A stretch of 64,000 nucleotides of DNA from Escherichia coli. GTDB taxonomy: Bacteria; Pseudomonadota; Gammaproteobacteria; Enterobacterales; Enterobacteriaceae. This document shows, piece after piece, positions 46,705 through 48,392 of the stretch. The position numbers and the translations under genes were made by a program. Under the pieces are notes generated by a model. It saw only the letters and a list, made by a program, of their open reading frames with translations, had not been told where the DNA came from and did not search any database. The stretch is from assembly GCF_003334765.1 (NCBI RefSeq), contig NZ_QOWT01000006.1. One strand, written 5' to 3'. Within the stretch, counting starts at the first letter, position 1, and every line of letters starts with the position of its first letter.

Positions 46705-47006
46705 TACCCCTTGCGGGGTTGTTTCATCGGCCTGAGCGGAGCCAGGCCTGACATTTGCTGGTAATCCAGACATTTCCCGGATGTCGCGTTATGGAGCGCG
46801 GGCGGCAACGGGCTTCCGTTAACGATTAAGACTGTGACGAGGAAATGAGATGATGCCGATGATTAAATCCCCGCATGGCGAGGGAGGCTGCGTATGCGCC
46901 CCTCCTGCTACTGACTGGACTCCGCCCCCTTTGCTTCCCTTGCTAAACAGGTTTGATTTCAGGTCGACACGACCGCAAACCTTATTACGCAGGGGAGGCA
47001 GCAATT

Positions 47007-48392
47007 ATGGCTATTAATTCACCACTGAATATTGCTGCGCAACCCGGCAAAACCCGTCTGCGAAAATCACTGAAATTGTGGCAGGTGGTGATGATGGGTC
47101 TGGCCTATCTCACGCCGATGACCGTATTTGATACTTTTGGTATTGTCTCCGGCATTAGCGACGGTCACGTTCCGGCGTCCTATTTGCTGGCGCTGGCGGG
47201 TGTGCTGTTTACCGCTATCAGCTACGGCAAACTGGTTCGCCAGTTTCCGGAGGCCGGTTCGGCCTATACCTACGCGCAAAAGTCGATTAACCCGCACGTC
47301 GGATTTATGGTCGGCTGGTCATCGCTGCTGGATTATCTCTTTTTGCCGATGATTAACGTCTTGTTGGCGAAAATCTATCTCTCCGCCCTCTTCCCGGAAG
47401 TGCCGCCGTGGGTGTGGGTGGTAACCTTCGTCGCCATTTTAACCGCCGCGAATCTGAAGAGCGTCAACCTGGTCGCTAACTTCAATACCCTGTTTGTACT
47501 GGTGCAAATCTCCATCATGGTGGTGTTTATCTTCCTGGTAGTTCAGGGACTGCATAAAGGAGAAGGCGTTGGCACCGTCTGGTCACTTCAGCCGTTTATC
47601 AGCGAGAACGCGCACCTGATCCCGATTATTACCGGGGCGACGATTGTCTGTTTCTCCTTCCTCGGTTTCGATGCGGTGACCACGCTTTCGGAAGAGACGC
47701 CGGACGCCGCACGCGTGATCCCGAAAGCCATCTTCCTGACGGCGGTCTACGGTGGCGTTATCTTTATCGCGGCGTCGTTCTTTATGCAGCTGTTCTTTCC
47801 CGATATCAGCCGCTTTAAAGATCCGGATGCCGCACTGCCTGAAATTGCGCTGTACGTCGGCGGCAAGCTCTTCCAGTCGATTTTCCTCTGCACCACGTTT
47901 GTGAACACGTTAGCCTCTGGCCTGGCTTCACATGCCAGCGTGTCGCGTCTGCTGTATGTGATGGGGCGTGACAATGTGTTTCCGGAGCGCGTGTTTGGCT
48001 ATGTGCACCCAAAATGGCGGACTCCGGCACTCAACGTCATTATGGTCGGGATTGTCGCGTTGTCGGCGCTGTTCTTCGATTTAGTTACCGCCACAGCGTT
48101 AATTAACTTCGGTGCTCTGGTGGCGTTTACCTTCGTGAATCTGTCGGTGTTTAATCATTTCTGGCGGCGTAAAGGAATGAATAAAAGCTGGAAGGATCAC
48201 TTCCACTATTTGCTGATGCCGCTGGTTGGCGCGCTGACGGTGGGTGTGCTGTGGGTTAACCTCGAGTCAACGTCACTGACACTCGGTCTGGTATGGGCTT
48301 CGTTAGGCGGCGCATATTTATGGTATCTGATCCGCCGCTATCGCAAAGTGCCGTTGTATGATGGTGACAGAACGCCGGTGAGTGAAACGTAA
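47007..48392 (+). CDS. puuP: Putrescine importer PuuP (APC superfamily)
   Basis: Start at [14 protein letters not shown]; 461 aa; polytopic membrane protein. Confidence 0.9.

Follow-up and report, generated by a model that had tools for sequence, protein, structure and literature searches.

The spacer between puuA and puuP of Escherichia coli holds a short open reading frame (ORF) that overlaps the start of puuP, the gene for a putrescine importer, and that is preceded by a conserved structured RNA. This ORF, known as ymjE, was analysed in a stretch of 64,000 nucleotides (nt) from contig NZ_QOWT01000006.1 (NCBI RefSeq assembly GCF_003334765.1), referred to below as the window. The features that define the ORF and its overlap with puuP are the following:

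46500-47300 (approximately), genomic setting, the puuD(-)/puuA/puuP/ymjA/sapA region of E. coli
46839-46845, + strand, Shine-Dalgarno (SD) sequence of ymjE, GAGGAAA, with CGAGG invariant in 37 species
46850-47017, + strand, ymjE ORF (b4742), 55 sense codons from the first ATG (54 from the ATG at 46853), then TAA
47007-47009, + strand, start codon of puuP, according to the sequence, the ORF list and the annotation
47015-47017, + strand, TAA stop codon of ymjE, made up of the third base of puuP codon 3 and the AA of its Asn codon 4

The ymjE frame is opened by two tandem ATGs (46850-46852 and 46853-46855) and closed on the 5' side by an in-frame TGA (46835-46837). The first ATG lies 4 nt from the SD sequence if the whole GAGGAAA is considered, or 6 nt from its GAGGA core (46839-46843), and the ORF overlaps puuP by 11 nt in a different frame. 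Thus, the sequence and the ORF list bear out what an earlier note on this DNA had described, namely an ORF running from 46850 to the TAA at 47015-47017, with GAGGAAA in front of it and an out-of-frame overlap with the puuP ATG. The same note was mistaken about the surroundings, since it gave the puuA-puuP spacer as 248 bp, when 302 nt separate the puuA stop codon (46702-46704) from the puuP ATG (47007), and called this spacer otherwise unexplained, overlooking that a conserved structured RNA takes up the remainder. It also failed to recognise the ORF as a known gene. RefSeq places the start of ymjE at the second ATG (46853; 54 residues), with the same frame and stop. However, the first ATG is invariant in the 38 aligned species (38/38), whereas two Raoultella species have ACG in place of the second, so that 46850 is no less likely to be the start than the annotated position.

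The ORF is an already catalogued small-protein gene of E. coli, and not a discovery. A megablast search with positions 46690-47030 against 5,426 complete E. coli genomes detected the region, at an identity of at least 95%, in 4,374 of them, and nearly all of the matches listed are annotated as "ymjE" or "YmjE family protein". Both K-12 MG1655 (b4742, 1359177-1359341) and strain 720632 hold a coding sequence with identical frame and stop, starting at the second ATG. The protein matches the Pfam family PF23692 (YmjE-like) over the full length of the profile (hmmscan, E=1.1e-43, model positions 1-54 of 54), and the gene is found on the same strand as puuA and puuP, between both genes and overlapping the puuP start; NCBIfam holds no hidden Markov model for YmjE. 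The other 1,052 of the 5,426 genomes lack any match to the puuA-puuP junction (46690-47030), so the locus is seemingly absent from about one-fifth of the strains.

Translation of ymjE has been demonstrated experimentally. A 54-residue YmjE with a chromosomal sequential peptide affinity (SPA) tag, identical in sequence to the product of this ORF from residue 2 onwards, was detected by immunoblot, and the gene was also positive in a ribosome-profiling screen with tetracycline; in the same work it was located immediately 5' of puuP, in a possible operon (VanOrsdel et al. 2018, PMC6001520). YmjE is, however, one of the small proteins with the lowest abundance (Weaver et al., bioRxiv 10.1101/511675). 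Searches of the available literature found neither a published function for ymjE nor a description of its RNA structure or wide conservation, and none on a puuP leader.

To follow the frame across species, species-representative genomes were scanned with PuuP, yielding 80 loci, among which puuA lies directly 5' of puuP in Enterobacteriaceae, Hafnia, Serratia, Erwinia, and Pantoea. The ymjE frame is open, with no stop at all, in the 41 Enterobacteriaceae species (41/41), which belong to Escherichia, Pseudocitrobacter, Klebsiella, Raoultella, Citrobacter, Enterobacter, Trabulsiella, Cedecea, Lelliottia, Huaxiibacter, Buttiauxella, Pluralibacter, and Shimwellia. In contrast, each of the other five frames accumulates 78-136 stops and is open in 0-4 of the 41 species; the probability of an open frame, given the base composition, is approximately 0.095 per species. 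In these 41 species the ORF begins behind the same SD sequence and terminates exactly at puuP +11. The distance from the SD-ATG anchor to the puuP ATG falls into nine length classes of 157-202 nt, all of them congruent to 1 modulo 3, and therefore every change in length has kept the frame. The stop codon occupies puuP positions +9 to +11, where TAA is invariant (38/38 aligned species), although residue 3 of PuuP, whose wobble base forms the first base of this TAA, varies among I, A, T, and F. ORFs with a stop in the same place are also found in Franconibacter, Hafnia (with TAG instead of TAA), and the group of Serratia liquefaciens, S. proteamaculans, and S. plymuthica. Neither the antisense ORF of 61 residues at 46819-47004 nor the remaining frames are conserved.

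A conserved open frame is thus found 5' of puuP, ending near its start codon. The earlier note had proposed conservation in related species as a check on the ORF, and the frame proved to be kept in 41/41 Enterobacteriaceae species. That note had left two options open, a leader peptide coupled to puuP or a chance ORF. The latter is excluded, because ymjE is already annotated, its translation has been observed experimentally, and its frame is kept across genera. The former fits the fixed stop and the covarying hairpin over the puuP SD sequence described below, so that ymjE may indeed act as a coupling leader. What is new is the comparative support for such a putative role, since the gene itself was already known.

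One locus with a typical Enterobacteriaceae arrangement (puuA-ymjE-puuP, with a PuuP 88% identical to that of E. coli) comes from an assembly labelled Chryseobacterium sp. 18061 (L035, CACSKA010000001.1), which is probably contaminated or mislabelled.

The 3' part of ymjE folds over the initiation region of puuP:

46931-47001, + strand, long hairpin within the ymjE coding sequence, with the anti-SD CUUCCC (46934-46939) paired with the puuP SD GGGGAGG (46992-46998)

Both arms of this hairpin lie inside ymjE, with the anti-SD approximately 55 nt 5' of the puuP SD and an inner helix formed by AGGUUUG and CAAACCU. The E. coli hairpin has a folding energy of -35.3 kcal/mol (z=-6.3), and the RNAalifold consensus of a MAFFT alignment of 38 species recovers the same SD/anti-SD helix together with the inner one. 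In this alignment, 92.7% of the cells are paired, compared to at most 55% in slid controls, and 35 cells are compensatory against 11.5 expected, a value reached in 0/500 shuffles. At the key SD/anti-SD pair, 31 sequences have CG and seven have UA, without breaks, and at a second pair 23 have CG and eight have GC; SD and anti-SD covary from GGGGG/CCCCC to GGAGG/CCUCC. The puuP SD has a predicted unpaired probability of 0.16, compared to 0.27 with a shuffled upstream sequence (p=3e-4), and the minimum free energy (MFE) fold pairs it with an upstream C-run in 12/12 representatives from 11 genera and three families. This pairing holds in Hafnia, Serratia, and Franconibacter despite the unrelated interior of their hairpins. 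The ribosome-binding site (RBS) of puuP is thus predicted to be sequestered in a structure that lies on the path of the ribosomes translating ymjE.

The prominence of RNA structure raises the question of whether the open frame could be a by-product of the conservation of the RNA, that is, of the structured leader and the SD hairpin, with translation being merely incidental. Such an explanation would agree with the lack of coding periodicity across genera in most of the ORF, and with the fact that the strongest conservation falls on RNA helices. However, RNA structure alone accounts neither for a frame free of stops across 41 species nor for length classes, nine in all, that differ by multiples of three, and it leaves the invariant stop built on the wobble base of puuP codon 3, and the invariant ATG behind an invariant SD, without an explanation. 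Incidental translation is consequently considered very improbable.

Upstream of ymjE, most of the spacer is occupied by the following RNA element:

46721-46859, + strand, structured leader RNA element of approximately 140 nt, from the P0 5' strand to the ymjE start codons
46721-46727, + strand, P0 5' strand, GUUUCAU in E. coli and GCAUCAU in most genera, complementary to AUGAUGC at 46850-46856
46728-46749, + strand, hairpin P1 (CGGCCU/AGGCCU), with the loop GAGCGGAGCC, which holds an invariant CGGA
46757-46771, + strand, hairpin P2 (GCUGG/CCAG.C), with a covarying middle pair
46776-46812, + strand, hairpin P3 (CCCG..UGUCGC/GCGGCA.CGGG), with the loop GUUAUGGAGCGCGG, which holds a conserved GGA

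The best-conserved part of the spacer according to BLAST (46724-46888, approximately 80% identity between genera) lies mostly 5' of the ORF. On the MAFFT alignment, 95.5% of the pair cells of the element are paired, compared to at most 45% in slid controls, and eight pairs have changed on both sides against 3.1 expected, which was reached in 0/500 shuffles. Hairpin P1 exhibits changes on both sides in five of its six pairs (GC to UA/CG, and CG to UA/GC), and the middle pair of P2 is AU in 18 sequences, UA in 16, and CG in three, without breaks. The support for P3, with 98% of its cells paired, is weaker than for P1 and P2, because its positions are mostly invariant or vary on one side only (UG/UA/CG). 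The loop motifs CGGAGC and GGAGCGC are invariant. A closing helix, P0, is proposed from the RNAalifold consensus, with 96-98% of its cells paired; since both of its strands are nearly invariant, covariation offers no test of this helix.

A covariance model of the element (R1) has a single match in the window (140.9 bits) and matches at the same position in 40 other loci, as well as in Franconibacter and Pantoea, where the stems are compensated. It has no match in the loci of PuuP homologues from Bacillus, Photorhabdus, Edwardsiella, and Pseudomonas. A conserved and covarying multi-helix fold beside an expression platform is typical of riboswitches, and is present here; no curated model matches it, as an Rfam scan of positions 44000-49500 at E≤1 found no family corresponding to the element. 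In the same scan, the eukaryotic SCARNA8 family matched the 3' end of puuP (48306-48416) with 22.5 bits and E=0.4, far under its gathering score, which is attributable to chance. The sequence of the element is single-copy, with a median of one place per E. coli genome in sensitive blastn searches. A repetitive extragenic palindromic (REP) element was therefore discarded, as no repeat is annotated in the spacer of MG1655 either, though one paper lists REPv111 for the operon.

Candidate partners of the element include proteins of the CsrA type. CsrA sites are usually GGA motifs in hairpin loops, with one more overlapping the SD sequence, separated by 10-63 nt. Three GGA motifs (46738-46740 in the P1 loop, 46793-46795 in the P3 loop, and 46841-46843 in the ymjE SD) are invariant or nearly so, and they are spaced within this range. 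This set of conserved motifs makes CsrA a candidate partner, although a literature search for CsrA together with puuA or puuP found no paper linking them.

Several other pairings and frames in the element were considered and rejected. An anti-SD AUUUCC (46772-46777) for the ymjE SD appears in the E. coli MFE fold, but the SD variants of Klebsiella and Raoultella (GAGGUAG) are not compensated. A pseudoknot between GGAGCC of the P1 loop and GGCUUC is not conserved in GGGUCUUC-type sequences, as judged by eye. Finally, a mini-ORF of 12 codons (46792-46830, ATG GAG CGC ... TAA), which starts in the P3 loop, is not conserved: it is restricted to Escherichia and to Citrobacter/Trabulsiella-type sequences, with the loop UAUGGAG, whereas many other genera hold AAGGAG or ACGGAG.

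The loci that lack ymjE provide further information about the relationship between the element and puuP. In Pantoea sp. BAV3049 (L045:2842-2975), puuA and puuP are kept without ymjE, and the element abuts the puuP ATG. In Serratia species with a short spacer, such as Serratia oryzae (L043:2960-2995), the last hairpin, with its GGA loop, and the SD sequence lie directly before the puuP ATG, and Serratia exhibits an ACAGGA loop beside the SD. Other puuA-puuP loci without ymjE are L047, L052, L057, and L060, where the puuP ATG is likewise preceded immediately by the element or by its last hairpin, with the GGA loop, and the SD. This distribution suggests that ymjE was either inserted between the element and puuP or deleted in the species without it. 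As the ymjE start holds the place that the puuP start occupies in Pantoea and in the short-spacer Serratia, ymjE would represent a relay between the element and puuP.

A different arrangement is found in Erwinia phyllosphaerae (L042:2858-2983), where an unrelated ORF of 41 codons shows an ATGA overlap with the likely puuP start and may represent coupling of puuP to an upstream ORF that arose independently. On the other hand, PuuP homologues of approximately 70-78% identity are encoded in Bacillus, Neobacillus, and Fictibacillus (L063-L079) and in Pseudomonas aeruginosa PA7 (L077), an identity that is unusually high for such distant taxa (Firmicutes and P. aeruginosa PA7). These loci hold no leader element and no close puuA orthologue 5' of the gene, PA7 having only a PuuA-like gene of 44% identity.

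From the observed open frame, fixed stop, SD hairpin, and upstream element, we infer a model that is considered moderately probable, in which ymjE is a leader or relay ORF coupling the putrescine importer gene puuP to its own translation, with the upstream element setting initiation. According to this model, ymjE would lie within a puuA-ymjE-puuP transcript, and the element would set how frequently ribosomes initiate on ymjE, the candidates for its input being a metabolite, a polyamine, a CsrA-type protein, or a small RNA. Ribosomes on ymjE would melt the SD-occluding hairpin, opening the puuP RBS, and would terminate approximately 8-11 nt past the puuP AUG. Due to this melting of the hairpin and to termination just past the AUG, puuP would be translated only when ymjE is, by unfolding and/or reinitiation. 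Translation of ymjE may also shield a C-rich stretch from Rho.

With respect to the transcript itself, one additional structure precedes the element:

46706-46719, + strand, GC-rich hairpin ACCCCUUGCGGGGU right after the puuA stop, from the terminator scan, with a weak U-tract behind it (to 46727)

This hairpin is found at the same position in most genera, and its U-tract is not conserved; it could act as a partial terminator or as a 3'-end stabiliser within the puuAP operon. A candidate sigma-54 promoter at 46744-46759 (AGGCCTGACATTTGCT) was rejected, as its three mismatches are at chance level (101 such sites found versus approximately 129 expected) and its GG-to-GC spacing is not conserved in other genera.

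The degree to which the YmjE peptide matters, beyond the act of its translation, may depend on a short N-terminal segment:

46853-46888, + strand, ymjE codons 2-13, the sole stretch with conservation at the amino-acid level, consensus MMQMFKYP[H/Q]GEG, MMPMIKSPHGEG in E. coli

Across genera, the site diversity of these codons at positions 1, 2, and 3 is 0.12, 0.16, and 0.38 (permutation p=0.0013), whereas the central codons of the ORF show only weak three-base periodicity and its 3' third shows none (0.40, 0.40, 0.41). A second motif, R-S-[E/K]-Y-G-P, is present in Citrobacter, Franconibacter, Hafnia, and Serratia and is deleted in Escherichia. Within Escherichia and Pseudocitrobacter, the ratio of nonsynonymous to synonymous substitution rates (dN/dS) of ymjE is 0.1-0.5, compared to 0.01-0.04 for puuA and puuP. 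The peptide may matter only through its first 13 residues or so. In each of the 41 species, the central part of ymjE is slightly enriched in C and depleted in G (C 0.26-0.38, G 0.19-0.29).

A rival reading is that YmjE is a nascent peptide with a sensor function. Its N-terminal motif, together with R-S-[E/K]-Y-G-P approximately eight residues later in many genera, would respond to putrescine or a related metabolite by arresting the translating ribosome, and this arrest would rearrange the leader RNA or obstruct Rho, tuning puuP in the way SpeFL, TnaC, and MdtU act on their targets. Such a mechanism would represent a special case of the leader model. The confinement of the periodicity to codons 2-13, the CRS(E/K)YGP sequence common to Citrobacter, Franconibacter, Hafnia, and Serratia, and a C-rich and G-poor middle resembling a Rho loading site are consistent with this mechanism, as are the polyamine-linked leader ORFs known in E. 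coli (PMC7815308; bioRxiv 10.1101/604074). Nevertheless, Citrobacter-type sequences replace P-x-GEG (with RVS for GEG), the RS(E/K)YGP segment is missing from Escherichia, and the C/G bias is mild, so that a sensor peptide appears rather unlikely.

The same N-terminal conservation, the existence of a Pfam family, a dN/dS below 1 within Escherichia, and the detectable accumulation of tagged YmjE (PMC6001520) could instead point to a small protein acting in trans, for example by modulating PuuP, PuuA, or PuuR, with the overlap with puuP being ordinary operon packing. On the other hand, beyond residues 1-13 the sequence cannot be aligned between genera, its length ranges from 54 to 72 residues, and its composition is of low complexity, with no hydrophobic segment. 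Moreover, conservation at the C-terminus tracks the RNA hairpin rather than codon positions, the protein is one of the scarcest of its kind (bioRxiv 10.1101/511675), and Pantoea and some Serratia do without it while retaining puuA-puuP. A trans-acting role is hence regarded as quite improbable, although not all of these explanations are mutually exclusive.

Two further sequence features of ymjE were considered. Stalling dependent on elongation factor P at the polyproline TPPP was rejected, as PPP is present only in Escherichia and is variable even within E. coli (PSP, PHP). A G-rich run in codons 9-12 (46874-46884, GGCGAGGGAGG) copies the local variant of the puuP SD in Escherichia, in Lelliottia/Huaxiibacter (GGGAGGG), and in Klebsiella (GGGGG), a correspondence not seen in Cedecea or Citrobacter; it could serve as an alternative partner of the anti-SD.

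Returning to the model of ymjE as a coupling leader, several points weigh against it. The constraint on the amino acids of codons 2-13 and the dN/dS of 0.1-0.5 in Escherichia are needless if only translation of the ORF matters. The P0 helix over the start codons shows no covariation and is degenerate or weak in Escherichia, including E. coli. G-rich SD sequences pair readily even in a shuffled context (0.27 unpaired), so the thermodynamic effect of the hairpin is modest, and puuP holds a strong SD at a good spacing, which might allow it to initiate by itself when the hairpin breathes. In addition, a scan of the spacer for sigma-70 promoters found none, and its transcription may come from the puuA promoter alone.

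Translational coupling by the unfolding of an occluded RBS is well known from secM-secA, rpmI-rplT, and ermCL-ermC, where the upstream stop adjoins the downstream start. Like in these pairs, the SD downstream of ymjE is predicted to be locked in a hairpin that the upstream ribosomes cross. However, in secM and ermCL the RBS is opened by a regulated stall at a defined site, whereas for ymjE simple passage or termination may suffice. The upstream element, for its part, resembles riboswitches and CsrA-type leaders in its several covarying hairpins, its highly conserved loops, the GGAs in two loops and in the SD, and the proposed helix closing over the start codon, and differs from the known riboswitches in matching no Rfam family.

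The closest functional analogue is mdtU-mdtJI, which encodes a spermidine exporter. The upstream ORF mdtU is translated and needed for downstream expression, with a demonstrated dependence on spermidine and Rho, and conservation peaks in its 3' region, whose RNA is predicted to pair with the RBS of the next gene (Adams et al. 2021, PMC7815308). Both mdtU and ymjE precede a polyamine transporter gene and hold a conserved region predicted to pair with its RBS. However, mdtU, with its 34 codons, ends 106 nt short of mdtJ, whereas ymjE extends into puuP, and mdtU is part of a 5' untranslated region behind a mapped start site, whereas ymjE lies between two operon genes. In speFL-speF/potE, a leader peptide is reported to act together with RNA and Rho, and SpeFL, an arrest peptide, to sense ornithine through a defined pocket in the nascent chain (bioRxiv 10.1101/604074; Herrero del Valle et al. 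2020). As a leader ORF in control of two polyamine genes, one of them for a putrescine transporter, speFL resembles the role proposed for ymjE, but YmjE and SpeFL have no sequence similarity. What sets ymjE apart from all of these systems is the combination of an overlap with its target, a location inside an operon with a gene on either side, and a distinct structured RNA in front of it.

PuuP provides the main route of import for putrescine catabolism, and its described control is transcriptional; literature searches did not find any post-transcriptional control of this protein. The model presented here, with its frame-conserved ORF, covarying SD hairpin, and orphan RNA, offers a concrete and testable mechanism by which putrescine uptake may be controlled at the post-transcriptional level. 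A more speculative extension, to which a low likelihood is assigned, is that of a two-stage sensor, where the orphan structured RNA (a new riboswitch class, or a leader responsive to a protein or polyamine) would gate ymjE, and the N-terminal nascent peptide and the passage through the hairpin would set the translation of puuP and possibly Rho readthrough. If this were true, ymjE would join speFL and mdtU as a third leader ORF linked to polyamines in E. coli, and would be the first one for uptake. More generally, ymjE would exemplify how some of the "small proteins" found by ribosome profiling may be conserved for the act of their translation, and not for the peptide produced.

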